DNA of 64,000 nt from Escherichia coli (lineage in GTDB: Bacteria > Pseudomonadota > Gammaproteobacteria > Enterobacterales > Enterobacteriaceae): assembly GCF_965641715.1 (NCBI RefSeq), contig NZ_OZ282453.1, one strand, 5' to 3'. Below the pieces are notes generated by a model that saw nothing but the letters and a program-made list of their open reading frames with translations, was not told the origin of the DNA and ran no database searches. This document shows, in pieces, positions 42,684 to 64,000 of this stretch; the stretch's first letter is position 1; each line of letters begins with the position of its first letter. A program made the position numbers and the translations under genes.

Positions 42684-43577
42684 ATGATGTCCAGTGAAGC
42701 TATCTTTGAACATGGTTATGAAAATATTGATTTGGTCCGGGAATATGATGCCCGCTACGCTGGTGAAGATGTGCATTATGAAACATTTGCCCGGTTAGCG
42801 AATTTCTTTGGACGCGATATGCGCCCTCACTGGCACGATAGATATTTTCAACTCCATTATCTGGTCACTGGACGCATTACTTTACAACTGGATGAGCACT
42901 TCTATTCTGTGCGCGCACCGCTTTTTGTACTAACACCACCATCGGTGCCACATACTTTCTTTACTGATCCTGATAGCGATGGGCATGTTCTGACCGTACG
43001 TCAGGAGTTAATTTGGCCCCTGGTAGAAAAGCTCTGGCCTGGTAGTGGAGATGCCGCAATGCTACAAGGTATCTGTCTGTCACTGGAGGGAATGGAACAT
43101 ACACTGGCGGCATTAAATCATTATTGGCCGATAATATCCCGGGAGTTTCAACAAAATAAGCCAGGACGGGAAATTCTATTGCAATCACTGGCGCAAAGTA
43201 TTTTTACAATCCTACTGCGTGAAGCACCACCAAATGATATTTCAACATGCAGCGTGCGCGGCGAGATGTGTTTATTCCAGAAGTTTAATCGGCTGATTGA
43301 CGAAAATTATCGCCAACATTTAATGGTCCCTGAATATGCAACAATGCTCGGTATGAGTGAATCACGGCTTACCGAGCTGTGCCGACGTTTTGCCAATCAA
43401 TCGCCGAAGAGATTGATTTTCGAACGAGTGAGCCGGGAAGCCAGACGGCTTCTGCTCTATAGCGAGCAAAGCATCAACCAGATAGCCCTTGATCTTGGCT
43501 ACAAAGATCCCGCCTATTTCGCCCGTTTTTTCAACCGAATGATGGGTTGCTCACCAACACAATTCCGTGGTCGCTGA
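42684..43577 (+). CDS. hpaA: AraC/XylS-family activator of hpaBC
   Basis: 297 aa; C-terminal AraC HTH. Confidence 0.75.
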   Translation: MMSSEAIFEHGYENIDLVREYDARYAGEDVHYETFARLANFFGRDMRPHWHDRYFQLHYLVTGRITLQLDEHFYSVRAPLFVLTPPSVPHTFFTDPDSDGHVLTVRQELIWPLVEKLWPGSGDAAMLQGICLSLEGMEHTLAALNHYWPIISREFQQNKPGREILLQSLAQSIFTILLREAPPNDISTCSVRGEMCLFQKFNRLIDENYRQHLMVPEYATMLGMSESRLTELCRRFANQSPKRLIFERVSREARRLLLYSEQSINQIALDLGYKDPAYFARFFNRMMGCSPTQFRGR

Positions 43578-43602
43578 CCATTTATCAACCTGAGAGACTC
43601 GA

Positions 43603-44542
43603 CATGAAAATATCTTTACGCTCACTATTTGTGGCGTGCCTGATTGCGCCAGTGGCATTCACCTACGCCTCCGAACCGCAAGAAATGAAAATTGTACTAC
43701 TTGGAACGAAAGGTGGCCCTTCTTTATTAAAAGCTGACCGTTTACCGATGGCAACGGCACTTATTATTGGCAATAAAACCTGGTTAATTGATGCTGGTTA
43801 CGGGGCCAGCTTACAACTGGTAAAAAATAATATTCCACTGCGCCAGATTGATAATATTTTACTCACCCATTTACACAGTGATCATATTCTGGACTATCCA
43901 TCAGTCTTAATGAATGCATGGGCTAGCGGTCTGCAGGACAAAACTATTCATGTGTTCGGTCCGCCAGGCACCCGAGCCATGACCGCTGCCAGTTGGCAGG
44001 TCTTCGATCGGGACATCACACTGCGTATGGAAGAAGAAGGAAAACCCGATCCTCGCAAACTCGTTACAGCTCAAGATGTTGGTGAAGGCGTAGTTTATAA
44101 AGATGATACCGTGACCGTGACTGCATTAAAGGTCCCTCATTCTCCTTTCCCTGACGGTGAGGCTTTTGCTTATCGCTTCGACACACAAGGCAAGCGAATT
44201 GTCTTCTCAGGAGATACCTCGTACTTTCCCCCACTGGCAACTTTCTCAGAAGGCGCTGATATACTTGTGCATGAGGCCGTACATGAGCCCTCCGTCGCTA
44301 AGCTGGCAGACAGTATTGGCAATGGTAAAACACTGGCAAAAGCCATTGCTTCTCACCATACGACTATTGAGGATGTAGGCAAAATTGCCAATGAAGCAAA
44401 AGTGAAAAAACTCATCCTTAGCCACCTGGTACCAATCACCGTTCCGGATGAAACATGGAAGCAAGAAGCACAGAAAAACTATTCAGGCCCTATCGTCGTT
44501 GGTCATGAAAATATGACGATTACCATTCCATTCGCCCCATAA
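43603..44542 (+). CDS. Secreted MBL-fold metallo-hydrolase (unknown substrate)
   Basis: Signal peptide MKISLRSLFVACLIAPVAFTYA; HxHxDH motif LLTHLHSDHILDY; low GC relative to flanking hpa genes. Confidence 0.55.
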
Positions 44543-47253: not shown

Positions 47254-49404
47254 ATGGATACGAAAAAACTATTCAAGCACATACCCTGGGTGATTCTCGG
47301 AATCATCGGTGCATTCTGCCTCGCGGTAGTTGCATTACGTCGGGGGGAGCACGTCAGCGCCCTGTGGATCGTGGTCGCCTCTGTGTCGGTGTATCTGGTG
47401 GCGTATCGCTACTACAGTCTGTACATCGCCCAGAAGGTGATGAAACTCGACCCCACACGCGCGACGCCTGCGGTTATTAACAACGACGGTCTGAACTACG
47501 TTCCGACCAACCGTTACGTGTTGTTTGGTCACCACTTCGCCGCTATCGCCGGTGCTGGTCCGCTGGTTGGTCCGGTGCTCGCCGCGCAGATGGGCTACCT
47601 GCCTGGCACGCTGTGGCTGCTGGCGGGGGTAGTGCTGGCCGGTGCGGTACAGGACTTTATGGTGCTGTTTATCTCCTCTCGCCGTAACGGCGCATCTCTC
47701 GGTGAGATGATCAAAGAAGAGATGGGGCCAGTACCGGGGACTATCGCGCTGTTTGGCTGTTTTTTAATCATGATCATCATCCTCGCCGTTCTGGCGCTGA
47801 TTGTGGTTAAAGCCCTGGCCGAAAGTCCGTGGGGTGTCTTCACCGTTTGCTCAACCGTACCAATTGCGCTGTTTATGGGTATCTACATGCGCTTTATCCG
47901 TCCGGGGCGTGTGGGTGAAGTCTCTGTCATTGGTATCGTGCTGCTGGTTGCCTCTATCTACTTCGGTGGCGTGATTGCTCACGATCCGTACTGGGGTCCG
48001 GCACTGACCTTTAAAGACACCACCATTACCTTCGCGCTGATTGGCTATGCGTTTGTTTCCGCACTGCTGCCGGTGTGGCTGATCCTCGCACCGCGCGATT
48101 ATCTGGCAACCTTCCTGAAAATCGGCGTTATCGTCGGCCTGGCGCTGGGTATCGTGGTGCTGAACCCGGAACTGAAAATGCCTGCGATGACCCAGTACAT
48201 TGACGGTACTGGCCCGCTGTGGAAAGGCGCTCTGTTCCCGTTCCTGTTCATCACCATCGCCTGTGGTGCGGTATCTGGCTTCCACGCGCTGATCTCTTCC
48301 GGTACGACGCCGAAACTGCTGGCTAACGAAACCGACGCGCGTTTCATTGGCTACGGCGCAATGCTGATGGAGTCCTTCGTGGCGATTATGGCGCTGGTTG
48401 CTGCGTCCATCATCGAACCGGGTCTTTACTTCGCGATGAATACCCCGCCTGCGGGCCTTGGCATCACCATGCCTAACCTGCATGAAATGGGTGGCGAGAA
48501 CGCGCCGATCATCATGGCGCAGCTGAAAGACGTTACCGCACACGCGGCGGCGACCGTCAGCTCCTGGGGCTTCGTGATTTCGCCAGAGCAGATCCTGCAA
48601 ACCGCGAAAGACATTGGTGAGCCTTCTGTCCTGAACCGTGCAGGTGGTGCGCCGACGCTGGCGGTAGGTATCGCTCATGTGTTCCACAAAGTGCTGCCGA
48701 TGGCTGACATGGGCTTCTGGTATCACTTCGGTATTCTGTTCGAAGCCCTGTTCATCCTGACCGCGCTGGATGCGGGTACCCGTTCTGGCCGCTTTATGCT
48801 GCAAGACCTGCTGGGTAACTTCATCCCGTTCCTGAAAAAAACCGACTCTCTGGTTGCCGGTATCATCGGTACTGCGGGCTGTGTGGGTCTGTGGGGCTAC
48901 CTGCTGTATCAGGGCGTGGTCGATCCGCTGGGCGGCGTTAAGAGCCTGTGGCCGCTGTTCGGTATCTCCAACCAGATGCTGGCAGCCGTAGCGCTGGTAC
49001 TGGGCACCGTTGTGCTGATTAAGATGAAGCGCACCCAATACATCTGGGTAACTGTTGTTCCGGCTGTATGGCTGCTTATCTGCACCACCTGGGCGCTGGG
49101 TCTGAAACTGTTCAGTACCAACCCGCAGATGGAAGGCTTCTTCTACATGGCAAGCCAGTACAAAGAGAAGATTGCTAACGGTACTGACCTGACGGCGCAG
49201 CAGATTGCCAACATGAACCACATCGTTGTGAACAACTACACCAACGCAGGCCTGAGTATTCTGTTCCTGATTGTGGTGTACAGCATCATCTTCTACGGTT
49301 TCAAAACCTGGCTTGCGGTGCGTAACAGCGACAAACGTACTGACAAAGAAACACCGTACGTTCCAATCCCGGAAGGCGGCGTGAAGATCTCTTCGCACCA
49401 CTAA
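47254..49404 (+). CDS. btsT: CstA-family pyruvate/H+ symporter BtsT (YjiY)
   Basis: About 716 aa from MDTKKLFKHIPW; polytopic membrane protein of the CstA family. Confidence 0.8.
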   Translation: MDTKKLFKHIPWVILGIIGAFCLAVVALRRGEHVSALWIVVASVSVYLVAYRYYSLYIAQKVMKLDPTRATPAVINNDGLNYVPTNRYVLFGHHFAAIAGAGPLVGPVLAAQMGYLPGTLWLLAGVVLAGAVQDFMVLFISSRRNGASLGEMIKEEMGPVPGTIALFGCFLIMIIILAVLALIVVKALAESPWGVFTVCSTVPIALFMGIYMRFIRPGRVGEVSVIGIVLLVASIYFGGVIAHDPYWGPALTFKDTTITFALIGYAFVSALLPVWLILAPRDYLATFLKIGVIVGLALGIVVLNPELKMPAMTQYIDGTGPLWKGALFPFLFITIACGAVSGFHALISSGTTPKLLANETDARFIGYGAMLMESFVAIMALVAASIIEPGLYFAMNTPPAGLGITMPNLHEMGGENAPIIMAQLKDVTAHAAATVSSWGFVISPEQILQTAKDIGEPSVLNRAGGAPTLAVGIAHVFHKVLPMADMGFWYHFGILFEALFILTALDAGTRSGRFMLQDLLGNFIPFLKKTDSLVAGIIGTAGCVGLWGYLLYQGVVDPLGGVKSLWPLFGISNQMLAAVALVLGTVVLIKMKRTQYIWVTVVPAVWLLICTTWALGLKLFSTNPQMEGFFYMASQYKEKIANGTDLTAQQIANMNHIVVNNYTNAGLSILFLIVVYSIIFYGFKTWLAVRNSDKRTDKETPYVPIPEGGVKISSHH

Positions 49405-49453
49405 CCGTGTTTAGCCCCGCTTCGGCGGGGCTTTGTTCTTATCAGAGTGAACT

Positions 49454-49657
49454 ATGTTTGGTAACTTAGGACAGGCAAAAAAATATCTCGGCCAGGCGGC
49501 GAAGATGTTGATTGGCATTCCAGACTACGACAACTACGTCGAGCATATGAAGACCAACCATCCCGACAAGCCGTACATGAGCTATGAAGAATTCTTCCGC
49601 GAACGCCAGAACGCGCGCTACGGCGGCGATGGTAAAGGCGGTATGCGCTGTTGTTAA
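49454..49657 (+). CDS. yjiX: YjiX (DUF466 small protein)
   Basis: 67 aa ending GGMRCC; K-12 order btsT-yjiX-yjiA. Confidence 0.75.
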
Positions 49658-49667
49658 TGGAGAGAGC

Positions 49668-50624
49668 ATGAACCCGATTGCAGTTACCCTACTCACCGGT
49701 TTTTTAGGCGCGGGAAAAACCACCCTGCTGCGCCATATTCTTAACGAACAACACGGCTACAAGATTGCCGTGATTGAAAACGAATTCGGCGAAGTCTCCG
49801 TTGATGATCAACTGATTGGCGACCGCGCCACGCAGATCAAAACGCTGACCAACGGCTGCATCTGCTGTTCGCGCTCCAACGAGCTGGAGAACGCGCTACT
49901 CGACCTGCTGGATAATCTCGACAAGGGCAATATTCAGTTCGATCGTCTGGTCATTGAATGCACCGGCATGGCCGATCCTGGCCCGATTATTCAGACCTTT
50001 TTCTCCCATGAGATTTTATGCCAGCGCTACCTGCTGGACGGCGTGATTGCGCTGGTGGATGCGGTACATGCCGATGAGCAGATGAACCAGTTCACCATCG
50101 CCCAGTCCCAGGTTGGCTACGCCGACCGTATTCTGCTGACTAAAACCGACGTCGCAGGCGAAGCAGAAATACTGCGTGAACGTCTGGCACGCATCAACGC
50201 CCGTGCACCGGTCTACACCGTCACCCACGGCGACATCGACCTGGGCCTGCTGTTCAACACTAACGGTTTTATGCTGGAAGAAAACGTCGTCAGCACCAAA
50301 CCGCGTTTCCACTTTATCGCGGATAAACAAAACGATATTTCGTCGATTGTGGTGGAACTGGATTACCCGGTAGATATCAGCGAAGTTTCCCGCGTGATGG
50401 AAAACCTGCTGCTGGAATCGGCGGATAAACTGCTGCGTTACAAAGGGATGCTGTGGATTGACGGCGAACCTAATCGCCTGCTGTTCCAGGGCGTCCAGCG
50501 CCTCTACAGCGCCGACTGGGACCGCCCATGGGGCGATGAAAAACCGCATAGCACGATGGTGTTTATCGGGATTCAGTTGCCGGAGGAAGAGATTCGGGCG
50601 GCGTTTGCGGGGTTGAGGAAGTAA
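49668..50624 (+). CDS. yjiA: CobW/COG0523-family GTPase YjiA
   Basis: 318 aa from MNPIAVTLLTGFLGAGKTTLL (Walker A); CxCC motif GCICCS. Confidence 0.8.
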   Translation: MNPIAVTLLTGFLGAGKTTLLRHILNEQHGYKIAVIENEFGEVSVDDQLIGDRATQIKTLTNGCICCSRSNELENALLDLLDNLDKGNIQFDRLVIECTGMADPGPIIQTFFSHEILCQRYLLDGVIALVDAVHADEQMNQFTIAQSQVGYADRILLTKTDVAGEAEILRERLARINARAPVYTVTHGDIDLGLLFNTNGFMLEENVVSTKPRFHFIADKQNDISSIVVELDYPVDISEVSRVMENLLLESADKLLRYKGMLWIDGEPNRLLFQGVQRLYSADWDRPWGDEKPHSTMVFIGIQLPEEEIRAAFAGLRK

Positions 50625-50941: not shown

Positions 50942-51943
50942 TTATTTCAGCCATCCAGGCACGTTATATTCTGAGACATTCTCAATGGAATATGCATCTC
51001 TCCTGTCAGAACCTTTCTTACACTTCAACTCATTGAACCCCCATTTACCCTCTCTATTGGAATAAAATACAGTATATTTATCAGTATTAAACCCGAAATA
51101 TCTTTCATCCGGACGTGAAATATTCAACTCTCCACATTTAACCTGACTGCGCCATTCAAAATCTATGGTGCTTTTTAAAACGTAGTACGAAATATTCTCT
51201 ACATTTTTTGAAGCAAAAACTACTAAAATAGTAGATACTATAAATGCTCCGGCAAGTATAAATAACCTATACACACTTAATTTAGTCCCCAGAGTTAAAA
51301 AAGCAAAATAGATAATAAGTTGCATCAACATGAAGAAAATCAACAAAAAAGCCATCCCTTTCCAGAAATACTCAACCCATGGTGATAGTGTGATATTTAG
51401 ATTACTCAAACTTAAAAATAAACTGGAAGAAAAACTACTTGAGAATAAATATATAATTGGTATGACAGCTAAAGTCATAGACCTAATAATCATTAATTTT
51501 TTATTATTTTTAAATTCCAACTCTAATATAATAAAAACACCTCCCAGAAAAACAAATACTGAAAAAGCACTAAAAACGTATACAGAGACACTGACTGGAA
51601 AAATATTAATTGAAAGCACAAAAAACAAAAATATAAACCATGCAATAAGTGAACACCAGGCAGCACAACTATTCAAACTGTTTTTATTACTGAACTTGAC
51701 AAAATACCCCATATATTCTGTAATGCGATTTTCTTCCACTAATGCATAAAGAAGAATACCAACAAAGCACAGAGATAAAATAATATCTTTCCACAGATAT
51801 TTATAAGGGAGAAGTATAAAACCAAGGAGTAGATAAATTAGCAGAATGACATCTAATGCCTTAGTACAAAAATATTGTTTCACTCCTTGCAAGAACCGAA
51901 CATTCTCCATATGAATCCTTCTCCAGCTATTGATGAAACTCAA
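50942..51943 (-). CDS. AT-rich polytopic membrane protein (about 6-7 TM) with about 80-aa C-terminal soluble tail; occupies the mrr slot
   Basis: 333-aa ORF with visibly low GC (AT-rich); multiple long hydrophobic segments; no motif recognised. Confidence 0.5.
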   Translation of the reverse strand: MSFINSWRRIHMENVRFLQGVKQYFCTKALDVILLIYLLLGFILLPYKYLWKDIILSLCFVGILLYALVEENRITEYMGYFVKFSNKNSLNSCAAWCSLIAWFIFLFFVLSINIFPVSVSVYVFSAFSVFVFLGGVFIILELEFKNNKKLMIIRSMTLAVIPIIYLFSSSFSSSLFLSLSNLNITLSPWVEYFWKGMAFLLIFFMLMQLIIYFAFLTLGTKLSVYRLFILAGAFIVSTILVVFASKNVENISYYVLKSTIDFEWRSQVKCGELNISRPDERYFGFNTDKYTVFYSNREGKWGFNELKCKKGSDRRDAYSIENVSEYNVPGWLK

Positions 51944-52050: not shown

Positions 52051-54483
52051 ATGGCGGAACTGAACCTAAGTAACCTGACGGAAGCAGACATCATTACCAA
52101 ATGCGTTATGCCAGCCATTCTCAATGCAGGCTGGGACAACACAACGCAAATCAGACAGGAGGTCAAACTCCGGGACGGTAAAGTCATCGTACGTGGTAAA
52201 GTTGCGGCACGCAGAACGGTAAAATCTGCTGACATCGTGCTGTACCACAAGCCAGGCATTCCCTTAGCCGTGATTGAAGCAAAAGCCAACAAACATGAAA
52301 TTGGCAAAGGGATGCAACAGGGCATTGAATATGCGCGCCTGCTGGACGTTCCTTTTGTTTTTGCCACCAATGGTGATGGCTTTATCTTCCGCGATGCCAC
52401 CGCAGCTGAAGGTGAATGCCTTGAAAAGCAAATAACGCTGGATGACTTCCCCTCCCCCGCTGAACTCTGGCAAAAATTCTGCCTCTGGAAAGGATACACA
52501 CAAGCTCAGCTTCCGGTGATTACTCAGGACTATTACGACGATGGTAGCGGTAAATCGCCTCGTTATTATCAACTTCAGGCAATCAACAAAACCATTGAAG
52601 CCGTCTCCAACGGGCAAAACCGCGTTCTGCTGGTCATGGCGACCGGAACAGGGAAAACCTATACCGCATTCCAGATCATCTGGCGCCTGTGGAAATCAAA
52701 AAATAAAAAACGCATTCTGTTCCTTGCCGATCGCAACATTCTGGTCGACCAAACCAAAAATAATGATTTCCAGCCATTTGGTACGGCAATGACCAAAGTC
52801 AGCGGACGCACCATTGATCCCGCTTATGAAATTCACCTCGCGCTCTATCAGGCTATAACTGGCCCGGAGGAAGACCAAAAAGCGTTTAAACAAGTCGCAC
52901 CAGATTTCTTCGATCTGATCGTGATCGACGAATGCCATCGCGGCAGCGCATCCGAAGACAGCGCCTGGCGAGAGATCCTTGATTATTTCAGTTCCGCCAC
53001 CCAAATTGGCTTAACCGCCACGCCAAAAGAGACGCATGAAGTCTCCAGCACGGATTACTTCGGCGATCCGGTTTACGTCTACTCGCTAAAAGAAGGGATC
53101 GAAGACGGCTTCCTCGCCCCTTATAAAGTTGTCCGTGTTGATATTGATGTTGATCTGCAAGGCTGGCGCCCAACCAAAGGGCAAACTGACTTAAACGGCG
53201 AAGTGATCGACGATCGTATCTATAACCAGAAAGATTTCGATCGCACGATGGTAATCGACGAACGCACAGAACTGGTTGCCAGAACCATTACCGACTACCT
53301 CAAGCGCACCAATCCGATGGATAAAACCATCGTCTTCTGTAACGACATCGATCATGCAGAACGTATGCGCCGCGCCCTGGTTAATCTCAACCCGGAGCAG
53401 GTGAAAAAGAACGACAAATACGTCATGAAAATCACCGGCGATGATGAAATTGGCAAAGCTCAGTTGGATAACTTCATCAACCCGAAAAAACCGTACCCGG
53501 TTATCGCGACCACTTCAGAGCTGATGACCACCGGTGTGGATGCTAAAACCTGCAAACTGGTAGTACTGGACCAGAACATCCAGTCGATGACCAAATTCAA
53601 GCAGATTATCGGTCGTGGTACACGCATCGACGAACGTTACGGCAAACTCTGGTTTACCATCCTCGACTTTAAAAAAGCCACCGAACTGTTTGCCGATGAG
53701 CGTTTCGATGGCATTCCCGAAAAAGTCATGGATACCACACCAGAGGATATCGCCGATCCAGACTCTGATTTTGAAGAGAAACTCGAAGAAATCAGCGAAC
53801 ATGTCGACGAACAGGTAACAGGCGTTGATGAACCGCCTGCGCCACCATACCAGGTTAAAGATACCGATGATGTCGGCCCACTTCCGGAAGAAGACGAGAA
53901 GAAAATCCGCAAGTTTCACGTCAACGGTGTAGCGGTGGGCGTTATTGCCCAGCGTGTTCAGTATTACGACGCCGACGGTAAACTGGTTACCGAATCCTTT
54001 AAAGATTACACTCGCAAAACACTGCTCAAAGAATATGCCTCGCTGGATGACTTTACCCGCAAGTGGCAGGACGCCGATCGCAAAGAAGCGATCATTCACG
54101 AGCTGGAGCAACAGGGGATCATCTGGGAAGTACTGGCAGAAGAAGTCGGTAAAGATCTCGACCCATTCGACATGCTTTGCCACGTAGTGTATGGTCAGCC
54201 GCCGTTAACCCGCAAAGAGCGCGCCGAGAACGTGCGCAAGCGGAACTACTTCACAAAATACTCTGAAGCAGCGCAAGCCGTGCTCGATAATCTGCTGGAT
54301 AAATACGCCGATGCGGGCGTACAGGAGATCGAAAGTATTCAGGTGCTGAAACTTAAGCCATTCGACAGCATGGGCACCTTACCGGAGATTATTAAAACCG
54401 GATTTGGCGACCGTAACGGGTATAATCAGGCGCTCAGCGAGCTGGAAAACGAAATCTACCAATTACCGCCCCGCTCTGCTTAA
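52051..54483 (+). CDS. hsdR: Type I restriction enzyme R subunit (non-EcoKI size class)
   Basis: 810 aa; PD-(D/E)xK-like N-terminus; helicase motif [14 protein letters not shown] and motif II DECHRG. Confidence 0.85.
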
Positions 54484-54549
54484 CAACTCTCTTTTGTGCC
54501 TTCTGCAACCATCATGTTGCAGAAGGCCTTGTTTTTCATGGAATACAAC

Positions 54550-56019
54550 ATGTCTATCAGCTCAGTAATCAAATCATTACAAGATATTATGCGCAAAGAT
54601 GCCGGTGTGGACGGCGATGCGCAGCGTCTCGGTCAGCTCTCCTGGCTGCTATTTTTGAAAATCTTCGATGCCCAGGAAGAGGCGCTGGAACTGGAGCAGG
54701 ATAACTATCAATATCCGATCCCACAGCGTTATTTGTGGCGCAGTTGGGCCGCCAACGCGCAGGGCATTACCGGTGATTCCCTGCTGGAATTCGTTAATGA
54801 TGATCTGTTCCCGGCGTTGAAAAACCTCACTGCGCCTATCGATAAAAACCCACGCGGCTACGTGGTAAAGCAGGCGTTCAGCGATGCCTATAACTATATG
54901 AAAAACGGTACGCTACTGCGTCAGGTGATCAACAAGCTGAACGAAATTGACTTTACCAGCGCCAGCGAACGCCATCTGTTTGGTGATATTTACGAACAGA
55001 TCCTTAAAGATCTGCAATCTGCGGGCAATGCTGGCGAATTCTATACTCCACGCGCCGTCACTCGCTTTATGGTGGATCGCGTCGATCCGAAACTCGGCGA
55101 ATCCATTATGGACCCGGCCTGCGGTACGGGCGGTTTTCTTGCCTGCGCATTTGATCATGTAAAGAACAAATACGTGAAGAGCGTCGCCGATCATCAGACG
55201 CTGCAACAACAGATCCACGGTGTTGAGAAAAAACAGCTTCCGCACCTGCTGGCGACCACCAATATGCTGCTGCACGGCATTGAAGTACCGGTACAAATTC
55301 GTCACGACAACACCCTGAACAAACCGCTTTCCTCCTGGGATGAACAACTGGATGTCATTGTTACCAACCCGCCGTTTGGTGGCACGGAAGAAGATGGTAT
55401 TGAGAAGAACTTTCCAGCAGAGATGCAAACCCGCGAAACGGCGGATTTGTTCCTGCAACTGATTGTGGAAGTACTGGCGAAAAACGGTCGCGCGGCGGTG
55501 GTATTGCCGGATGGCACACTATTTGGCGAAGGCGTTAAAACCAAAATCAAAAAGCTACTTACCGAAGAGTGCAACCTGCATACCATCGTGCGCTTACCGA
55601 ATGGTGTGTTTAACCCCTATACCGGCATTAAAACCAACCTGTTGTTCTTTACCAAAGGTCAGCCAACCAAAGAGATTTGGTTCTATGAGCATCCGTATCC
55701 GGCGGGCGTGAAAAACTACAGCAAAACCAAGCCGATGAAGTTTGAAGAGTTTCAGGCGGAGATCGACTGGTGGGGTAACGAGGCCGATGGTTTTGCCAGC
55801 CGCGTCGAGAATGAGCAAGCGTGGAAAGTCAGCATTGATGACGTGATTGCGCGTAACTTCAATCTGGATATTAAAAACCCACATCAGGCGGAAACCGTCA
55901 GCCATGATCCGGACGAACTGTTAGCGCAGTATGCAAAGCAACAGGCGGAGATCCAGACGCTGCGTAATCAACTGCGCGATATTCTCGGCGCTGCGCTGTC
56001 TGGCAAGGAGGTTAACTGA
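54550..56019 (+). CDS. hsdM: Type I restriction-modification N6-adenine methyltransferase M subunit
   Basis: Motif IV NPPFGG; SAM-binding DPACGTGGFL; start could be 54496 or 54538. Confidence 0.85.
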   Translation: MSISSVIKSLQDIMRKDAGVDGDAQRLGQLSWLLFLKIFDAQEEALELEQDNYQYPIPQRYLWRSWAANAQGITGDSLLEFVNDDLFPALKNLTAPIDKNPRGYVVKQAFSDAYNYMKNGTLLRQVINKLNEIDFTSASERHLFGDIYEQILKDLQSAGNAGEFYTPRAVTRFMVDRVDPKLGESIMDPACGTGGFLACAFDHVKNKYVKSVADHQTLQQQIHGVEKKQLPHLLATTNMLLHGIEVPVQIRHDNTLNKPLSSWDEQLDVIVTNPPFGGTEEDGIEKNFPAEMQTRETADLFLQLIVEVLAKNGRAAVVLPDGTLFGEGVKTKIKKLLTEECNLHTIVRLPNGVFNPYTGIKTNLLFFTKGQPTKEIWFYEHPYPAGVKNYSKTKPMKFEEFQAEIDWWGNEADGFASRVENEQAWKVSIDDVIARNFNLDIKNPHQAETVSHDPDELLAQYAKQQAEIQTLRNQLRDILGAALSGKEVN

Positions 56020-57776
56020 TGAGTGTGGAAAAGCTGATCGTTGATCATATGGAAACCTGGACCTCGGCGTTGCAAACCCGTTCCACCGCCGGGCGCGGCA
56101 GCTCCGGTAAGATTGATTTGTATGGTATTAAGAAATTGCGTGAGCTGATTCTGGAACTGGCGGTGCGCGGTAAACTGGTGCCGCAGGATCCGCATGATGA
56201 ACCGGCGTCGGAGCTGCTGAAGCGTAATGAAGAACGGAAAAAAGAATTAGCGCGCAATAATGGTATGAAAACCACAGCAAGCACTAATATCCATGGAAAT
56301 GAATATTATATCGATACCCCCGAAAAGTGGTCATGGATAAGACTTGGTAATTTAGCTAAATTCATCGATTACCGAGGAAAAACACCACATAAAAAAGAAA
56401 ATGGTATAAGGCTTATAACAGCAAAAAATATCAGAAAGGGCTATATTGATCTCAATCCAGAAGAGTTCATATCTGAAGAAGATTACATATCATGGATGAC
56501 AAGAGGCTTTCCTAAATGTGGTGATATTTTATTCACAACTGAAGCACCACTGGGGAATGCAGCGATTATTGATTTAGACGGAAAGTTCGCTCTTGCTCAA
56601 CGTTCTATCTGTTTTCAATGGCATACTCCAGAGATAAGCCCTTTTATGCTTATTCAAATCCTGGCGATCCCCTTCCAGTCACAACTAAGTGACAAATCTA
56701 CAGGCATGACCGCAACAGGAATAAAAGCGTCTAAGTTAAAAGAGATCCCTGTTATTTTACCACCTTACCAAGAACAAATACGTATTGTATCCAAAGTACA
56801 GGAGTTCATGTCCCTATGTGACCAACTGGAACAGCAATCCCTGACCAGTCTGGACGCACATCAGCAACTGGTTGAAACCCTGTTGGAAACACTTACAGAC
56901 AGCCAAAACGCCGAGGAACTGGCTGAAAACTGGGCGCGTATTAGCGAGCATTTCGACACCCTATTTACCACTGAAGCCAGCGTGGATGCGTTAAAACAGA
57001 CCATTCTGCAACTGGCCGTAATGGGTAAACTTGTGCCGCAGGATCCGAATGACGAACCAGCCTCTGAACTGCTCAAACGAATTGCGCAGGAAAAAGCTCA
57101 ACTGGTGAAAGAAGGGAAAATAAAAAAACAAAAACCGTTGCCGCCAATTAGCGATGAGGAAAAGCCGTTTGAACTGCCGGAAGGTTGGGAGTGGTGTCGA
57201 TTGGGTTCTATTTATAATTTTTTAAATGGATATGCCTTTAAAAGTGAGTGGTTTACCTCTGTCGGTTTACGTTTATTGCGGAATGCTAACATTGCTCATG
57301 GAGTTACCAATTGGAAAGATGTTGTACATATACCAAATGACATGATATCCGATTTTGAAAATTATATTTTGTCAGAAAATGATATTGTTATTTCATTAGA
57401 CAGACCAATTATTAATACCGGGTTAAAATATGCTATCATTAGCAAATCAGATTTACCCTGTTTACTGCTCCAACGAGTAGCAAAATTTAAAAATTATGCA
57501 AACACTGTGTCTAACTCCTTCTTGACAATATGGTTGCAATCTTATTTCTTCATAAATTCAATTGATCCTGGAAGAAGTAATGGAGTTCCACATATATCTA
57601 CGAAACAGTTAGAGATGACACTATTTCCTCTTCTACCGCAAAGTGAACAAGATCGTATTATTTCAAAAACGGATGAATTAATACAAACCTGTAATAAACT
57701 GAAATATATTATCAAAACCGCCAAACAAACCCAACTGCACCTTGCAGACGCACTGACTGACGCAGCGATAAACTAA
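56019..57776 (+). CDS. hsdS: Type I restriction-modification specificity subunit with two AT-rich target-recognition domains
   Basis: 585 aa; duplicated conserved spacer (ELAVRGKLVPQDPHDEPASELLKR and LAVMGKLVPQDPNDEPASELLKR) flanking low-GC variable regions. Confidence 0.8.
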   Translation: MSVEKLIVDHMETWTSALQTRSTAGRGSSGKIDLYGIKKLRELILELAVRGKLVPQDPHDEPASELLKRNEERKKELARNNGMKTTASTNIHGNEYYIDTPEKWSWIRLGNLAKFIDYRGKTPHKKENGIRLITAKNIRKGYIDLNPEEFISEEDYISWMTRGFPKCGDILFTTEAPLGNAAIIDLDGKFALAQRSICFQWHTPEISPFMLIQILAIPFQSQLSDKSTGMTATGIKASKLKEIPVILPPYQEQIRIVSKVQEFMSLCDQLEQQSLTSLDAHQQLVETLLETLTDSQNAEELAENWARISEHFDTLFTTEASVDALKQTILQLAVMGKLVPQDPNDEPASELLKRIAQEKAQLVKEGKIKKQKPLPPISDEEKPFELPEGWEWCRLGSIYNFLNGYAFKSEWFTSVGLRLLRNANIAHGVTNWKDVVHIPNDMISDFENYILSENDIVISLDRPIINTGLKYAIISKSDLPCLLLQRVAKFKNYANTVSNSFLTIWLQSYFFINSIDPGRSNGVPHISTKQLEMTLFPLLPQSEQDRIISKTDELIQTCNKLKYIIKTAKQTQLHLADALTDAAIN

Positions 57777-57996
57777 TTCCCTCGCCCTCAAAAAACCAAT
57801 AAAGCGGCTAAATAGCCGCTTTATTCACATCACCAAAAATTATATTTCACGCTAAACTTCATCTTATTTTCATTAATTTTTAGCTGGACTTCCCCTGTAT
57901 TTACTGATGATATATCCAGGTATTTAGCGCGGTGCGGATGTGCGCCAACACACCCGCACCGCTAATCACAATCCCTATTTCTAAGGAATAGTAATC

Positions 57997-58338
57997 ATGA
58001 CTGACACGCATTCTATTGCACAACCGTTCGAAGCAGAAGTCTCCCCGGCAAATAACCGTCAATTAACCGTGAGTTATGCGAGCCGCTACCCGGATTACAG
58101 CCGTATTCCCGCCATCACCCTGAAAGGTCAGTGGCTGGAAGCCGCCGGTTTTGCCACTGGCACGGCGGTAGATGTCAAAGTGATGGAAGGCTGTATTGTC
58201 CTCACCGCCCAACCCGCCGCCGCCGAAGAGAGCGAACTGATGCAGTCACTACGCCAGGTGTGCAAACTGTCGGCGCGTAAACAAAAGCAGGTGCGGGAAT
58301 TTATTGGGGTGATTGCGGGTAAACAGAAAGTCGCCTGA
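57997..58338 (+). CDS. symE: SOS-induced toxin-like protein SymE
   Basis: 113 aa starting [34 protein letters not shown]; matches recalled K-12 SymE; adjacent to hsdS as in K-12. Confidence 0.8.
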
Positions 58339-58384
58339 TACATTGACCCGGTAGCGCCAGTGCTACCGGGTATTATTCGCCGCG

Positions 58385-60478
58385 TTATACCAAGGCGCTC
58401 TCCATCTGTTTTTCAAATGCCTGACGAATTAATCCCATAATGTAAGGAAGTTGTGCGAGGTCACTGAAACCAATTTCCACATCACCATTACCCCAGCGCC
58501 CAACATTTGTCACATCTTTGGCAATACCTTTCGGATCGACCAGTTCATGAAACTGCATATTAAGCGACAATCGCAGTCGGCTTTTTTGCGGCACAACATC
58601 AACAAAATTCGTTTCCGCTTTAAACGCAATATATAGCTTCAATACTTCCTGCGTGATCCCTGCGTCCAGGCGCATAACTTCATCGCGAAGATGATCGAAT
58701 AACACCCGGCTATGCGAACCATCAGCAAGAAAAGGATAATCACTCAGGCTGTAACTGGTTTTGTTTTCAGGCTGTCCCCGATAAACAGCTAAAACCTCTT
58801 CAGGAAGAGAAGGCGCTTGCCAGACCTGAACCGCGAGATCGGCCAGACGATCGGCTCGGGCGTGAATGGCGGCTTCATCCCATTTTTCGCACTGTCCAAG
58901 ACCGATATTCAAATAGAGCGGGCTATGCTTAAAGCCGTCTTCAATATCGCGTTTTTCTGCGAAAGGTCTGTCACTGTAACGGGAGTTATAGCGCGTTAAA
59001 GTGAGATTCCCCAACGTATGCAACAGTTCTTTATGAATACGCTGCCAGTCGCTTCCCAGCTCTTCGCGCCATTTAGCCGACAAATTTTCGTTCTGCGGCA
59101 TAATATGTTCAATCGTAAACTCTTCCACGCGCTCTCTGCGTTTATCGTTTTCCAGTCGTCGTAACCAGTAGCTGCGACTACGGAAGTTATAGAGATCGCG
59201 AACTTTTAATTCCCGTTTAAATTCATCATCGTTGGGGAAACGACGATATGAAGGTAGATTCAAAAAATGTACCTGAATACTTTCCAGATAATTTTCTTTA
59301 TTAATAACTTTATAAAAAGTGGCAAATGTCTTGTTCAAAGAATTTGTCGGAATTGCACATACTGCACGGCGGAAAACATAAGATTCAATTAAACGAATTA
59401 TGCTCAGGAAATCTTCGTGAGACAAAACGCCATTTTTATAGTCATGATAAAGCGCCAGTAAGAAAGGATACACCACATCGACCTTTAACTCGCGCAAATC
59501 CTGAAAAGCCGTAGCAAGCAATTTGTCACTTTCTTTTCCCAATGCCATTGCACAGTAATACTCCGCGTAGATATGAATATCTTCAACCAGCCGATCTACG
59601 CCTTTTTCAGCAACACTCTGGCTGCGGGCATGGAGTTTAAATGCCTCATAGACTTCATCTGTCCGAGGGATCTCCCCCGTTTTTACCGTCAGATAATGAC
59701 GCATAAAACTGTCAAAATATTCGCTGTAACCTTGCTGACCAAAGGCGACTTCCATTGGACGCCAGTGATCTTCATACAACCGGGTTTGATGCTCTGGTTC
59801 GAGGCCCATCAGAATAAAATTGCGCACCAGATCGGCCTGACTTAACGCCTTACCGGTGGAGTTCATACTTTCAAAAATCAGTTGCGGATTATCCTGACCA
59901 CGATTAAGCGCCACATCGACAATTAATAACTTTGCTAACCCACGACATAAGGGGATCAAGTCATCACCGAGTTTGGCAATTTGTTCATCAAAGAAAGTAA
60001 AGTTTTCCATTATTCGATGGGAATAGTTTTCTGGCATTGGTCTTTGTTTTATTAACGCCAGTAAACTGTCTTTATCAGTCTCGGTCAGCAGTAATTTAAA
60101 ACCTTTCTCGCCGGACTCATAAGGATTGAGCAAATAATAATTACGCAATTTCATTGCCGAAAAGCCATCAAAAACTTCGTCTTCGCCAAGATGGCGCGAT
60201 AAAGCCTCAATCAGCAACATTGCGGTCGTCAGCCGCTGCTGACCATCAATGACCAGCAACGGAGAAATACCAGAAACCTGATACAATCCCTGCTCTATAT
60301 AAACAACCGAACCGATAAAATGCGCTGATATATCGTCACGCTTTCCTGCACGAATGATGTCGTCCCAAAGTTGCCGACATTGTTGCCCGGTCCATGAATA
60401 AGTCCGTTGATAAATGGGAATAACAAACTGCTGCGAACGTTTTAAAAAATCGAGTAGGCGAGCTTCTGTAGCTTTCAT
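58385..60478 (-). CDS. GmrSD-family type IV (modification-dependent) restriction endonuclease candidate (DUF262 plus DUF1524)
   Basis: 697 aa; N-terminal DUF262 motifs (IPIYQRTYSW, DGQQRLTT); C-terminal His-Me finger-like TIEHIMPQ. Confidence 0.65.
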   Translation of the reverse strand: MKATEARLLDFLKRSQQFVIPIYQRTYSWTGQQCRQLWDDIIRAGKRDDISAHFIGSVVYIEQGLYQVSGISPLLVIDGQQRLTTAMLLIEALSRHLGEDEVFDGFSAMKLRNYYLLNPYESGEKGFKLLLTETDKDSLLALIKQRPMPENYSHRIMENFTFFDEQIAKLGDDLIPLCRGLAKLLIVDVALNRGQDNPQLIFESMNSTGKALSQADLVRNFILMGLEPEHQTRLYEDHWRPMEVAFGQQGYSEYFDSFMRHYLTVKTGEIPRTDEVYEAFKLHARSQSVAEKGVDRLVEDIHIYAEYYCAMALGKESDKLLATAFQDLRELKVDVVYPFLLALYHDYKNGVLSHEDFLSIIRLIESYVFRRAVCAIPTNSLNKTFATFYKVINKENYLESIQVHFLNLPSYRRFPNDDEFKRELKVRDLYNFRSRSYWLRRLENDKRRERVEEFTIEHIMPQNENLSAKWREELGSDWQRIHKELLHTLGNLTLTRYNSRYSDRPFAEKRDIEDGFKHSPLYLNIGLGQCEKWDEAAIHARADRLADLAVQVWQAPSLPEEVLAVYRGQPENKTSYSLSDYPFLADGSHSRVLFDHLRDEVMRLDAGITQEVLKLYIAFKAETNFVDVVPQKSRLRLSLNMQFHELVDPKGIAKDVTNVGRWGNGDVEIGFSDLAQLPYIMGLIRQAFEKQMESALV

Positions 60479-60574
60479 TCTGACGTCTTTCCGTGAAACG
60501 ATGATTTCGCAATAATAACCACTTCCTTGTGGAGGTTATAGAGAAATCCTGTTTATCCGCGACGAACATACCCC

Positions 60575-60739
60575 TCACTCCACATCCTCCCTGCGTAACC
60601 CAATATCCCTCAACCGCTCATCACTCATCTGCTGTAACACTCGTCGGGTCTGCATTTGCCACCGCCAACGCCTCATCGCCTGCCAGAGTTGCACAAGTCT
60701 GATAAACGGCGTTTTGGCTTTGTTTTCGTGAAATTCCAT
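60575..60739 (-). CDS. yjiS: DUF1127 small protein YjiS
   Basis: 54-aa ORF MEFHENKAKTPFIRLVQLWQAMRRWRWQMQTRRVLQQMSDERLRDIGLRREDVE; below the ORF-track size cut-off. Confidence 0.55.
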   Translation of the reverse strand: MEFHENKAKTPFIRLVQLWQAMRRWRWQMQTRRVLQQMSDERLRDIGLRREDVE

Positions 60740-60915
60740 CTGCTGCCTCCTCATCTTTCAGAGGCTTCATCATCCGCCTTCTGGCAGTTCACAATACAGA
60801 TGCAAATATTAGTTTTATTTAACATACAGACAGGTTAAAACAGCATCTGCATCCGGTTTTTTAGCTTCATCTGTACCGGTTTTTCTCTCTGTATGGTCTA
60901 AATAAGGAATACAGC

Positions 60916-62328
60916 ATGACGCGTTATCAACATCTGGCAACTCTGCTTGCCGAGCGGATTGAGCAAGGGCTGTATCGTCACGGGGAGAAATTGCCGTCGG
61001 TGCGCAGCTTAAGTCAGGAGCACGGCGTCAGCATCAGCACCGTGCAGCAGGCGTATCAGACGCTGGAGACGATGAAGCTCATCACTCCGCAGCCGCGTTC
61101 GGGGTATTTTGTCGCACAACGTAAAGCCCAGCCGCCAGTGCCGCCGATGACGCGTCCGGTGCAGCGCCCGGTGGAAATTACCCAGTGGGATCAGGTACTG
61201 GATATGCTGGAGGCGCATAGCGACAGTTCCATTGTTCCGTTAAGCAAAAGCACGCCGGATGTCGAAACGCCCAGCCTGAAACCACTCTGGCGGGAGCTAA
61301 GCCGGGTGGTACAGCATAATCTGCAAACCGTTCTCGGTTATGACTTGCTAGCCGGTCAGCGGGTATTGCGCGAGCAGGTTGCCCGCCTGATGCTCGACAG
61401 CGGCTCGGTGGTCACCGCCGATGACATCATTATCACCAGCGGCTGCCATAACTCGATGTCGCTGGCGTTAATGGCGGTGTGTAAACCGGGCGATATTGTC
61501 GCGGTCGAATCCCCCTGTTATTACGGTTCGATGCAGATGCTGCGCGGCATGGGCGTGAAAGTGATTGAAATCCCAACCGATCCAGAAACTGGCATCAGCG
61601 TTGAAGCGCTGGAACTGGCGCTGGAACAGTGGCCGATTAAAGGCATCATTTTGGTGCCAAACTGTAATAATCCGCTGGGATTTATTATGCCGGACGCGCG
61701 CAAACGGGCCGTTCTCTCTCTCGCTCAGCGTCATGATATTGTGATTTTTGAAGATGATGTCTACGGCGAACTGGCAACGGAGTATCCGCGCCCGCGGACC
61801 ATTCATTCATGGGATATCGACGGGCGAGTGCTGTTGTGCAGCTCGTTCAGTAAAAGTATTGCTCCAGGCCTGCGCGTGGGTTGGGTCGCACCGGGGCGTT
61901 ATCACGATAAACTGCTGCATATGAAATACGCCATCAGCAGCTTTAATGTGCCGTCCACGCAAATGGCGGCAGCAACGTTTGTGCTGGAAGGTCACTATCA
62001 TCGCCATATCCGGCGGATGCGGCAGATCTATCAGCGCAATTTGGCGCTTTATACCTGCTGGATACGGGAATATTTTCCCTGCGAAATCTGTATTACGCGC
62101 CCGAAAGGCGGATTTTTACTGTGGATAGAATTGCCTGAACAGGTCGATATGGTCTGCGTCGCGCGGCAGCTGTGCCGCATGAAAATCCAGGTGGCGGCAG
62201 GCTCGATTTTCTCAGCTTCCGGCAAATACCGTAACTGCCTGCGCATCAACTGCGCTTTGCCGCTCAGCGAAACCTATCGCGAAGCACTGAAGCAAATTGG
62301 CGAGGCCGTGTATCAGGCAATGGAATGA
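60916..62328 (+). CDS. yjiR: MocR-family regulator (GntR HTH fused to aminotransferase-like domain) YjiR
   Basis: 470 aa; N-terminal GntR HTH and class I aminotransferase-like body. Confidence 0.8.
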   Translation: MTRYQHLATLLAERIEQGLYRHGEKLPSVRSLSQEHGVSISTVQQAYQTLETMKLITPQPRSGYFVAQRKAQPPVPPMTRPVQRPVEITQWDQVLDMLEAHSDSSIVPLSKSTPDVETPSLKPLWRELSRVVQHNLQTVLGYDLLAGQRVLREQVARLMLDSGSVVTADDIIITSGCHNSMSLALMAVCKPGDIVAVESPCYYGSMQMLRGMGVKVIEIPTDPETGISVEALELALEQWPIKGIILVPNCNNPLGFIMPDARKRAVLSLAQRHDIVIFEDDVYGELATEYPRPRTIHSWDIDGRVLLCSSFSKSIAPGLRVGWVAPGRYHDKLLHMKYAISSFNVPSTQMAAATFVLEGHYHRHIRRMRQIYQRNLALYTCWIREYFPCEICITRPKGGFLLWIELPEQVDMVCVARQLCRMKIQVAAGSIFSASGKYRNCLRINCALPLSETYREALKQIGEAVYQAME

Positions 62329-62444
62329 ATTCGAATCAGTGGCGAGGCCCCTGATTTCCTCTCACGAATCGCCTGTGACTCGTTTTATCTTTGCAGGGGC
62401 ATCACCACGTTCCAGCATGGCTTAGGCAAAGTGTGCTTTGTTCA

Positions 62445-62545
62445 TACCGGATGCGGCGTGAACGCCTTATCCGGCTTACAAATCGCGCAAATTCAATAGA
62501 TTGCAGAGGTAATGTAGGTCTGATAAGCGTAGCACATCAGGCAGC
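62445..62545. repeat. REP/BIME elements
   Basis: CCGGATGCGGCGTGAACGCCTTATCCGG and GTAGGTCTGATAAGCGTAGCACATCAGGC units. Confidence 0.55.
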
Positions 62546-62569
62546 TTTGCGTTTGTCATCAGTCTCTGA

Positions 62570-63514
62570 TTAGTACTCGATCCATGGATCGCGCTTGCTT
62601 TCAGGCAAGGGTTGCTCTAATGCCTGCATTTGCTCTGCCGAAAGTCCAGTATATCGTTGTATCCATTCAGGATCCGCACCGTTCTGCAAAAGCAATCTAA
62701 GGAGGCGTTGTTCCCCTTCTTCTTTCCCCTTTTCCATCCCTAACAGCCATCCATCATTATGAATTCGCTCTGCAATCGTCATTATTCGCTCCCTGTGTTG
62801 TGGCATTCGACGGGTAAGTTCACTGATAAACTCATTAAAACGCGCTTCATCGCCAGTCAGTAAAATGTAATTTAACAGCGCGGTTATCTGGCTGTCATTA
62901 GCGCACCCTGTAACCAGTAATACTGCCAGTTGATCAATAAGCCCCATTAGATCGCGCTGGCGAATATGCTTTTGGATCAACTCCAACAGGGCGACTCTGC
63001 GGTGCTGCACAATCTCGTCGTCTGGCACGACAGTGATATCCACCAGCGGGAACGCGGCATTATAAAGTTTCCGTGCGGTAGTCGGGTCGGCAAATTCGTC
63101 CAGCCAGCACAGGGACCAGGGGTAAGGACTACGGCTACCGTGATAAAACAGCATCGGGATGACCAGCGGTAGCTGCCGGCGTTTATCATGCTCGATATGG
63201 CGCTGCATCACCGCCATGGAATAGCGCATCAGGCGAAACGCCATATGAATATCCTCGCGGCTCTGATGTTCAATCACTACGTAAATATAACCATCACCTT
63301 CACGGGTCTTTACCGACCACAGAATATCGGAGTGTAGCGCCCGCAATTTTTCATCGACAAAGCTGGCTGACTCCAGTTTTAAGCTGTCGAGATCGCACAG
63401 TTCACGTAAATCTTTGGGTAAGTGGATCTCCATAAAATCCCGCGCGGTGTCAGGGTGAGTGAGAAAGGATTTAAATAATGCGTCATGTGGCGTGCTGGTC
63501 GTGAAGTTTGTCAT
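62570..63514 (-). CDS. rpnD: Rpn-family recombination-promoting nuclease (YhgA-like), apparently intact RpnD
   Basis: 314-aa uninterrupted ORF; corresponds to the K-12 yjiP/yjiQ locus. Confidence 0.65.
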
Positions 63515-64000
63515 GGCGATCCGTCACCTGTAGATAAGATGGCCCGACTTTAGCGACTAACAAAACCATTCTCACCCGGCAATTTCTCGTTCCCCGAGGT
63601 GCTTTCCAGGCTATTTTTGTTCGTCTGCAAACGATACATTTTTCCGGAAACAGGCTCGCGTTTTACATTTCCTGTACCCGGCAGATATTCCCCTTTCCAC
63701 CGCGCTCTTTTGATTAACCGCAAATTTTAATTACACTTAAGGTGTATATTTTCTATGCAACCCATCAATTAAAGAGGTGTAATGTGCTGATGACTATTTG
63801 TAATCGTTATACATTCTGACCTGGAGTCAGAAGGTATTTCTCTGTCTGTGTGTTCACAGGCAGTGTGATTGATTACATGAAATTCAGTACATTTGCCCTT
63901 CTCGCCTGCCTTTCGTCATTACCGACGGTATTGAATTTCGTTTTCCCCGTTGGGGTTCTCCGGACAAGGAGTTGTTTGTTATGCCACGTTTTTTTGCCCG

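Follow-up and report, generated by a model that had tools for sequence, protein, structure and literature searches.

An intact three-domain GmrSD-like gene at the mcrBC position of an Escherichia coli immigration control region

Gene content of the locus

The window analyzed here is a stretch of 64,000 nucleotides of E. coli DNA (contig NZ_OZ282453.1) that includes an immigration control region (ICR). Comparison of the window with the genome of E. coli K-12 by blastn identified three aligning segments: 49000-50624 on the yjiA side, 57876-58334 covering symE and symR, and 60571-64000 covering yjiS, yjiR, and rpn. The order of genes in K-12 is yjiS - yjiT - yjiV' - mcrC - mcrB - symE - hsdS - hsdM - hsdR - mrr - yjiA. 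Between symE and yjiS, the window contains a cassette of 2.2 kb (58335..60570) with no K-12 counterpart, which showed no homology to the 7.6 kb that comprise yjiT-yjiV-mcrC-mcrB in K-12. As the segment lacks a counterpart and bears no relation to yjiT, it takes the place of 7.6 kb of K-12 sequence. The cassette contains a GmrSD-like gene on the minus strand (58385..60478), and its location between symE and yjiS, at the slot of mcrBC, agrees with a preliminary description of the locus; the replaced block is yjiT-yjiV-mcrC-mcrB. The alternative that yjiT or yjiV of K-12 could be a remnant of a GmrSD-like gene was discarded, since neither blastp nor tblastn detected any similarity. In K-12, the same slot is occupied by the McrBC genes, which provide the type IV restriction function of the ICR. 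McrBC consists of two subunits, an AAA+ GTPase and a PD-(D/E)xK nuclease, and it is unrelated in sequence and architecture to the protein encoded in the window, in which a ParB-like NTPase and a His-Me nuclease are combined in a single chain.

The genes flanking the cassette also differ from those of K-12. An hsdR-hsdM-hsdS operon is located on the plus strand (52051..57776), and it was assigned to type IB (EcoAI/FtnUII family) using NCBIfam model NF046051, which HsdR matched at 1192 bits (cutoff 550), and the RefSeq annotation of collinear genomes. It is followed by symE (57997-58338, plus strand; NCBIfam SymE, 3.7e-68), which lies between hsdS and the GmrSD-like gene, and by the gene for its antisense sRNA, symR (57926-58002, minus strand; Rfam, 93 bits). 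The GmrSD-like gene is thus convergent with hsdRMS, with symE/symR between them. No mrr gene is present; the mrr slot is occupied by a gene for a 333-aa membrane protein, located in DNA of low GC content (31-40%), for which profile searches gave no family match. These data confirmed that the window carries a different hsdRMS family and a replacement at the mrr slot, as previously proposed.

Two intergenic regions bordering the GmrSD-like gene were further analyzed. Between the stop codons of the convergent symE and GmrSD-like genes there is a GC-rich hairpin with a 10-bp stem (58346..58371; RNA fold -20.2 kcal/mol, z -2.96), which is likely a shared terminator of both genes and was not called by the consensus terminator scan. 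On the other side, a spacer of 96 bp (60479..60574, minus strand) separates the yjiS stop codon from the ATG of the GmrSD-like gene, both genes being in the same strand, and it contains a weak Shine-Dalgarno-like element (GGAAAG). A scan of positions 57800-61000 for consensus promoters and terminators gave nothing above shuffled expectation.

Domain architecture and structural relatives

The ORF at 58385..60478 starts with ATG and codes for a protein of 697 aa, with no frameshift or internal stop codon in the ORF listing of the window; an inactivating frameshift, the objection anticipated in the preliminary description, is absent from the window copy. The ORF itself, Pfam and PADLOC profiles, an AlphaFold2 model, and dN/dS values all support an intact coding sequence for a single-chain nuclease of the GmrSD superfamily with three domains. 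The first one is an N-terminal DUF262/GmrSD_N ParB-like NTPase domain (aa 9-222; 59813..60454, minus strand; Pfam PF03235, E 4.1e-34), followed by an all-helical linker or middle region (aa 223-414; 59237..59812, minus strand), assigned from the AlphaFold2 secondary structure. The second is a DUF1524/GmrSD_C His-Me finger nuclease domain (aa 415-547; 58838..59236, minus strand; PF07510, E 2.3e-26), and the third a C-terminal DUF5655 domain (aa 591-690; 58409..58708, minus strand; PF18899, E 3.4e-13). The DUF262-DUF1524 pair had already been recognized from motifs, and the three motifs on which it was based are all present in the translation: IPIYQRTYSW (aa 20-29), DGQQRLTT (aa 78-85), and TIEHIMPQ (aa 454-462). 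In the N-terminal domain, the coordinates of PIYQR (60404-60418) and DGQQR (60233-60247), both on the minus strand, were checked; the GmrSD_C domain contains EHIMP (59096-59110) and residues N491 (59006-59008) and N498 (58985-58987), also on the minus strand. The DUF5655 domain had been missed in the preliminary description. In the literature searched, this domain was mentioned in a single paper on an unrelated subject, and in a search for other DUF5655 architectures with a profile of the C-terminal domain the best 120 matches were uninformative fragments of the GmrSD-like family.

Searches against defense-system profiles were in agreement with this architecture. PADLOC model Orf5 (PDLC02693) matched the first approximately 555 residues of the protein end to end (E 1.6e-222), and model HEC-06 (PDLC04155) aligned aa 8-555 with profile positions 12-560 of 562 (E 1.4e-66). 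Weaker PADLOC matches were obtained to mREase_IV and SspE, and the C-terminus matched the PADLOC candidate PDC-S18. No NCBIfam model matched the 697-aa protein. A search for the source of the PADLOC name "Orf5" found none. In an alignment of 68 homologs, residues P21, Q24, R25, D78, Q80, Q81, R82, P461, and N491 were invariant, and E457, H458, and N498 were conserved in at least 90% of the sequences; all catalytic residues are kept in the window protein. The presence in one chain of a DUF262 domain with DGQQR, a helical linker, and a DUF1524 domain with EHIMP established the 697-aa protein as a member of the GmrSD superfamily.

The AlphaFold2 model, built from the 68-sequence alignment, reached a pLDDT of 90. 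It contains helices 228-406 between the DUF262 and DUF1524 domains, beta-beta-alpha elements in the nuclease domain (E455-458, E492-495, and H498-501), and a DUF5655 domain folded as an alpha-beta5-alpha sandwich of the YdhG/YjbR/frataxin-like type. Foldseek comparison of the model with the PDB ranked DndI first (9jfl, E 2.2e-16), SspE second (best chain 7drs, E 8.5e-14, and other SspE chains up to about 1e-9), and BrxU third (7p9k, E 3.5e-5). Searching PDB sequences by phmmer retrieved DndI 9jfl (1.5e-12) and SspE (4e-6), and BrxU was not detected by this search at E<=0.01. The N-terminal half of the protein, including the linker region, aligns with DndI 9jfl. DndI and SspE (PDB 9jfl; 6jiv/7drs) share with the window protein the DUF262 plus DUF1524 layout and the nuclease motif (T)-I/L-E-H-x-x-P (TLEHIYP in DndI and TIEHVAPQ in SspE), but they are only 16-18% identical to it and lack DUF5655. 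Both enzymes act on unmodified DNA, and host phosphorothioate (PT) keeps them in check. The residue equivalent to Y25 of DndI was considered as an indication of PT sensing and rejected, because it corresponds to the tyrosine of PxYQR, a motif shared across the family, and cannot discriminate that activity. The prototype type IV enzymes GmrSD (CT596), Eco94GmrSD, and BrxU resemble the window protein in being single-chain defense nucleases with the same Pfam domain pair; BrxU, itself embedded in a modification-based system, BREX, differs in its nuclease motif (DHIYP versus EHIMP).

Distribution, integrity, and annotation in E. coli

Among 5,426 complete E. coli genomes, 1,520 carry the GmrSD-like gene, the identity being 95-99% in about 1,400 of these. 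The arrangement hsd(IB)-symE-gene-yjiS is present in its entirety in at least 714 genomes, and a second allele, with 72-73% DNA identity, lies beside another type I system in 117. Cassettes of the ICR assort independently. Strain GDSC2227PM has lost hsdRMS and its GmrSD-like gene is still intact; a second DUF262/HNH gene occupies the mrr slot in NRG 857C and O157:H7; and B2 strains have mrr and a type I system at the ICR locus, as in APEC O1 (He et al., 2015) and in UM146, where a 1,170-aa protein adjoins mrr. The earlier view of the whole region as an alternative allele set is thus correct for the window, but it does not describe a fixed set across strains.

The gene of the window is a common E. 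coli ICR allele that has been known since 2015. Homologs of GmrSD in the ICR were described by He et al. (2015; PMC4437046; Sci Rep 5:9747, Fig. 8), with APECO1_2080, UTI89_C5048, ECP_4674, and LF82_736 as examples, and APECO1_2080 was reported as a protein of 733 aa that is 24% identical to Eco94GmrSD. In NRG 857C, an LF82-like strain, the gene adjoining symE in the ICR shows about 97% DNA identity to the window gene, and its frame is open up to an in-frame ATG located 36 codons upstream, which is present in B2 strains. Because of this identity, and because the upstream ATG gives exactly 733 aa (697 + 36), APECO1_2080 and the window gene were concluded to be the same gene. The two loci differ in that APEC O1 has mrr, whereas the window lacks it and has an EcoAI-type hsd operon beside the gene; otherwise there is no essential difference. 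The observation of He et al. on ICR GmrSD homologs is repeated in a 2025 EcoSal review on host-dependent restriction-modification. The gene belongs to cluster CLS_001, the largest and most common GmrSD-type cluster in Enterobacteria, to which Silas et al. (2025; Nat Commun 16:7828) assign its RefSeq fragment WP_071531326 and the O157 fragments; the same authors report five additional active GmrSD systems and state that GmrSD enzymes have almost nothing but DGQQR in common. By itself, the finding therefore corresponds to a common ICR variant of E. coli, present in the literature since 2015 and in defense-system HMM libraries; its useful by-products are the DUF5655 domain, the split annotation in RefSeq, and the embedding of a conserved branch of the family in type I restriction-modification (R-M) loci.

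In order to assess integrity, 11 E. coli copies chosen across the identity range were translated. Nine of them contained the intact 697-aa ORF, which ruled out that the gene is usually broken, as the "pseudogene" label of RefSeq implies. Of the lesions observed, the one in O157:H7 TW14359 is the genuine loss of 1 bp from a G5 run at nt 801 and that in strain E6474 an independent 1-bp deletion at nt 473, both causing frameshifts; IS insertions and truncations of the gene were found in other genomes. Pairwise dN/dS between the window gene and intact E. coli alleles was 0.04-0.11 over the full length, indicating that the complete protein is under strong purifying selection. RefSeq splits every intact copy examined into a 387-aa "GmrSD restriction endonuclease domain-containing protein" and an "incomplete" or "frameshifted" DUF262 pseudogene. 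This label on intact ORFs is an annotation artefact, which probably propagates from the truly frameshifted O157 lineage. Since intact copies are mis-annotated in RefSeq, pangenome and defense surveys will record too few copies of the gene or take it to be broken.

Wider family and putative function

Relatives of the protein are abundant: 18,864 were retrieved from a 50%-identity library at E<=1e-3 and 2,742 at E<=1e-30. Many of them are about 700 aa long and have the three domains; in others DUF5655 is missing or the C-terminus differs. Full-length homologs at least 70% identical to the window protein occur in Kiritimatiella, a cyanobacterium, Halomonas, and Oceanimonas, homologs 60-68% identical in Anaerolineales, Acidobacteria, Pseudonocardia, and Mycolicibacterium, and one 44% identical in Methanobrevibacter. 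Most relatives at 50-80% identity, which come from many phyla, lie within a type I R-M operon or beside one. In six of seven sampled genomes the homolog (X) lies inside or abuts such an operon, usually with 4-bp overlaps: the order is M-S-X-R-YgjP in Kiritimatiella and Salinivibrio, M-S-...-X-R in Halopseudomonas, M-X-S...R in a cyanobacterium, and M-S-Bro-R-X in Oceanimonas, and in Citrobacter X is convergent with R-S-M within the ICR. No type I system was found near the Nitrincola homolog. A species-level sample of 80 loci was also analyzed, scanning the flanks by phmmer with Hsd seed sequences; the resulting counts are lower bounds, since the seed set was small and many of the contigs are truncated. 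Two or more type I subunits were detected in the flanks of at least 20 of 42 three-domain loci, of at least 18 of the 26 three-domain loci with 49% identity or more, and of at least 4 among the 38 relatives that were shorter or more distant. That GmrSD homologs are linked to type I R-M is already in the literature: Machnicka (2015) described their enrichment with these systems, and RloF, and Payne (2024) reported GmrSD-like genes embedded in them.

The closest tested relative of the window protein is HEC-06 (Payne et al., 2024, preprint). The 550-aa core is matched over its full length by the HEC-06 and Orf5 models, which comprise about 545-560 aa and have no counterpart to the DUF5655 domain of the window protein. 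HEC-06 defended a strain without R-M systems, and its mutants Q79A/R80A and E471A/H472A lose defense; the equivalent residues in the window protein are Q81/R82 and E457/H458. HEC-06 differs in context, as it is embedded in Hma (helicase-methylase-ATPase) systems and not beside type I R-M. The neighbors of the window gene are symE, type IB hsdRMS, and yjiS, with no Hma system among them.

The gene is intact and selectively maintained, and from its context the stand-alone defense nuclease that it encodes most likely, with a probability of roughly 60%, acts in type IV, modification-directed restriction. By analogy with BrxU, SspE, DndI, and HEC-06, the enzyme would be a metal-dependent DNA nuclease or nickase regulated by NTP: in a probable dimer, binding and hydrolysis of NTP by the N-terminal domain would govern whether the nuclease domain can reach DNA, to nick or cut it in a metal-dependent manner. 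DUF5655 might, speculatively, be an accessory DNA- or ligand-binding module. The proposed role would be restriction of modified phage DNA evading the adjacent type I R-M system, a role filled by mcrBC at the same slot in K-12 and by BrxU inside BREX. A type IV role is favored because the gene fills the mcrBC slot and because its partner systems act on unmodified DNA, the complementarity shown for BREX and BrxU. Against it, neither DndI nor SspE, the nearest relatives of solved structure, is a modification-dependent cutter, and BrxU is a weaker structural match; in addition, 60-70% identity or more between phyla is atypical of GmrSD enzymes (Silas et al., 2025), among which those targeting T-even phages diverge fast.

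An alternative that we consider unlikely is a nuclease working with the logic of SspE and DndI. Such an enzyme would attack incoming DNA whether modified or not and would be held off the chromosome by a host epigenetic mark; the mark could be m6A deposited by the linked type I system and sensed directly or via Hsd proteins, so that the nuclease would be a second restriction arm of R-M rather than a type IV enzyme. Consistent with this, DndI and SspE are the best PDB matches by both sequence and structure, the T-I-E-H-I-x-P-Q motif matches theirs, DndI attacks PT-deficient DNA and is toxic without modification, and homologs from several phyla are translationally coupled inside type I R-M operons. 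However, a protein at least 70% identical beside unrelated HsdS specificities cannot plausibly read each methylation pattern. Moreover, the same allele stays intact in E. coli in the company of EcoAI-family type IB hsdRMS or where hsd has been deleted and, according to the locus descriptions of He et al. (2015) and Silas et al. (2025), in the company of other type I systems. Searches for dnd and ssp genes were negative in the window flanks, in 50 kb upstream in a collinear genome, and in the contexts of the seven relatives, and HEC-06 defended without any R-M system.

It is rather doubtful that the three-domain branch DUF262-DUF1524-DUF5655 is functionally coupled to type I R-M instead of being an independent type IV enzyme, a proposal based on its 60-80% identity across distant phyla and on translational coupling inside type I R-M operons. 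In that case the protein could be a second nuclease restrained by the R-M state of the host, much as PT restrains DndI and SspE, or a guard triggered by anti-restriction proteins, and with both options DUF5655 would be the sensor or docking module.

A guard of the PrrC kind, that is, a latent nuclease activated when a phage protein of the Ocr/ArdA/Stp type disables the Hsd complex, appears very unlikely. The prr locus (PrrC/EcoprrI) has the order hsdM-hsdS-X-hsdR. The same order occurs in Kiritimatiella and Salinivibrio, PrrC is labeled by Payne et al. (2024) as embedded almost exclusively in type I R-M, and the high conservation of the family could reflect a conserved protein partner. Nevertheless, the position in the operon varies (M-X-S-R, M-S-X-R, M-S-R-X, and X-R-M-S), the window gene is convergent with hsd with symE intervening, some relatives have no type I system nearby, and the related HEC-06 works alone.

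Finally, it is hardly credible that the gene is a remnant, decaying or silent, that serves no function in the window strain at present: the independent frameshifts of O157:H7 and E6474, the IS insertions and truncations in other genomes, the RefSeq pseudogene calls for part of the gene, and the consensus promoter scan that found none would fit it, but the window copy and nine of the 11 sampled copies are intact, dN/dS is low along the full length, all catalytic residues are kept, and the pseudogene label falls on intact ORFs.

Annotation and inactivated alleles of the GmrSD-like gene

The GmrSD-like gene (58385-60478, minus strand; 697 aa) is represented in RefSeq/PGAP in two pieces, although the copies concerned are intact: a 387-aa CDS that begins at the internal residue M311, and a DUF262 pseudogene labelled "incomplete" or "frameshifted". 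This split annotation was found for the window gene and for the copies in loci L001 (12001-14094), L003 (9398-11491) and L007-L013 from other genomes. Direct translation gave a reading frame free of stops and frameshifts in nine of the 11 copies. Broken alleles were found in O157:H7 TW14359 (L004 9001-11093), where a 1-bp deletion reduces a G5 run to G4 at nucleotide 801 of the gene, and in strain E6474 (L006 101-2193), where 1 bp is deleted from an A4 run at nucleotide 473. These two deletions are independent and inactivating. Among the matches in complete E. coli genomes, the gene was also affected by IS5/ISKpn26 or IS1 insertions, or by truncations (H7, H66, H69, and H73-75).

Type I restriction-modification genes and the mrr slot

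The hsdM ORF of the window (54496-56019, plus strand) has a GTG start and codes for 507 aa; collinear genomes annotate a shorter CDS of 1,470 nt (489 aa), and the real start is probably near 54550. In the type I systems that embed close homologs of the GmrSD-like gene (L014, L015, L018, L019, L021, and L005), HsdM is in most cases unusually long (715-929 aa, compared with a usual size of about 500-540 aa) and HsdR mostly has about 1,020-1,090 aa; two of these systems carry a YgjP-like/SprT-like gene 3' of hsdR.

The mrr slot of the window (50942-51943, minus strand) codes for a 333-aa multi-pass membrane protein in DNA of 31-40% GC, and this protein had no match in NCBIfam or PADLOC. At the same position, the collinear genome G47-1 contains a hypothetical protein and an "antitoxin". 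In other E. coli the slot is occupied by a second DUF262/HNH protein, unlike the GmrSD-like one: it has 550 aa in NRG 857C (L104 2788-4440) and is split in O157:H7 (L004 741-2392). In these two strains, therefore, the type IB hsdRMS genes are flanked by two GmrSD-like genes.

Flanks of the immigration control region and other genes

The conserved yjiS-yjiR-rpn flank (60571-64000) showed only 93.9% identity to K-12 (L002 501-3920), the same value as symE, and the yjiA side showed 97.8%; across the whole immigration control region, the best E. coli match had about 98% identity. These values fit the reputation of the region as a polymorphism hotspot. The 46-bp gap separating the convergent stop codons of symE and the GmrSD-like gene contains a GC-rich 10-bp hairpin (58346-58371; -20.2 kcal/mol, z -2.96), which is part of the cassette-specific DNA.

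Between hpaA and hpaB lies an inserted gene (43547-44542, plus strand) whose product is a metallo-hydrolase of the MBL fold and has a signal-like N-terminus. This gene is missing from the hpa cluster of G47-1 and present in GDSC2227PM, a genome without hsdRMS in which the GmrSD-like gene is intact. The Rpn-family (rpnD-like) gene (62570-63514, minus strand) is an intact ORF of 314 aa, whereas rpnD is annotated as a pseudogene in K-12 and is frameshifted in O157:H7.
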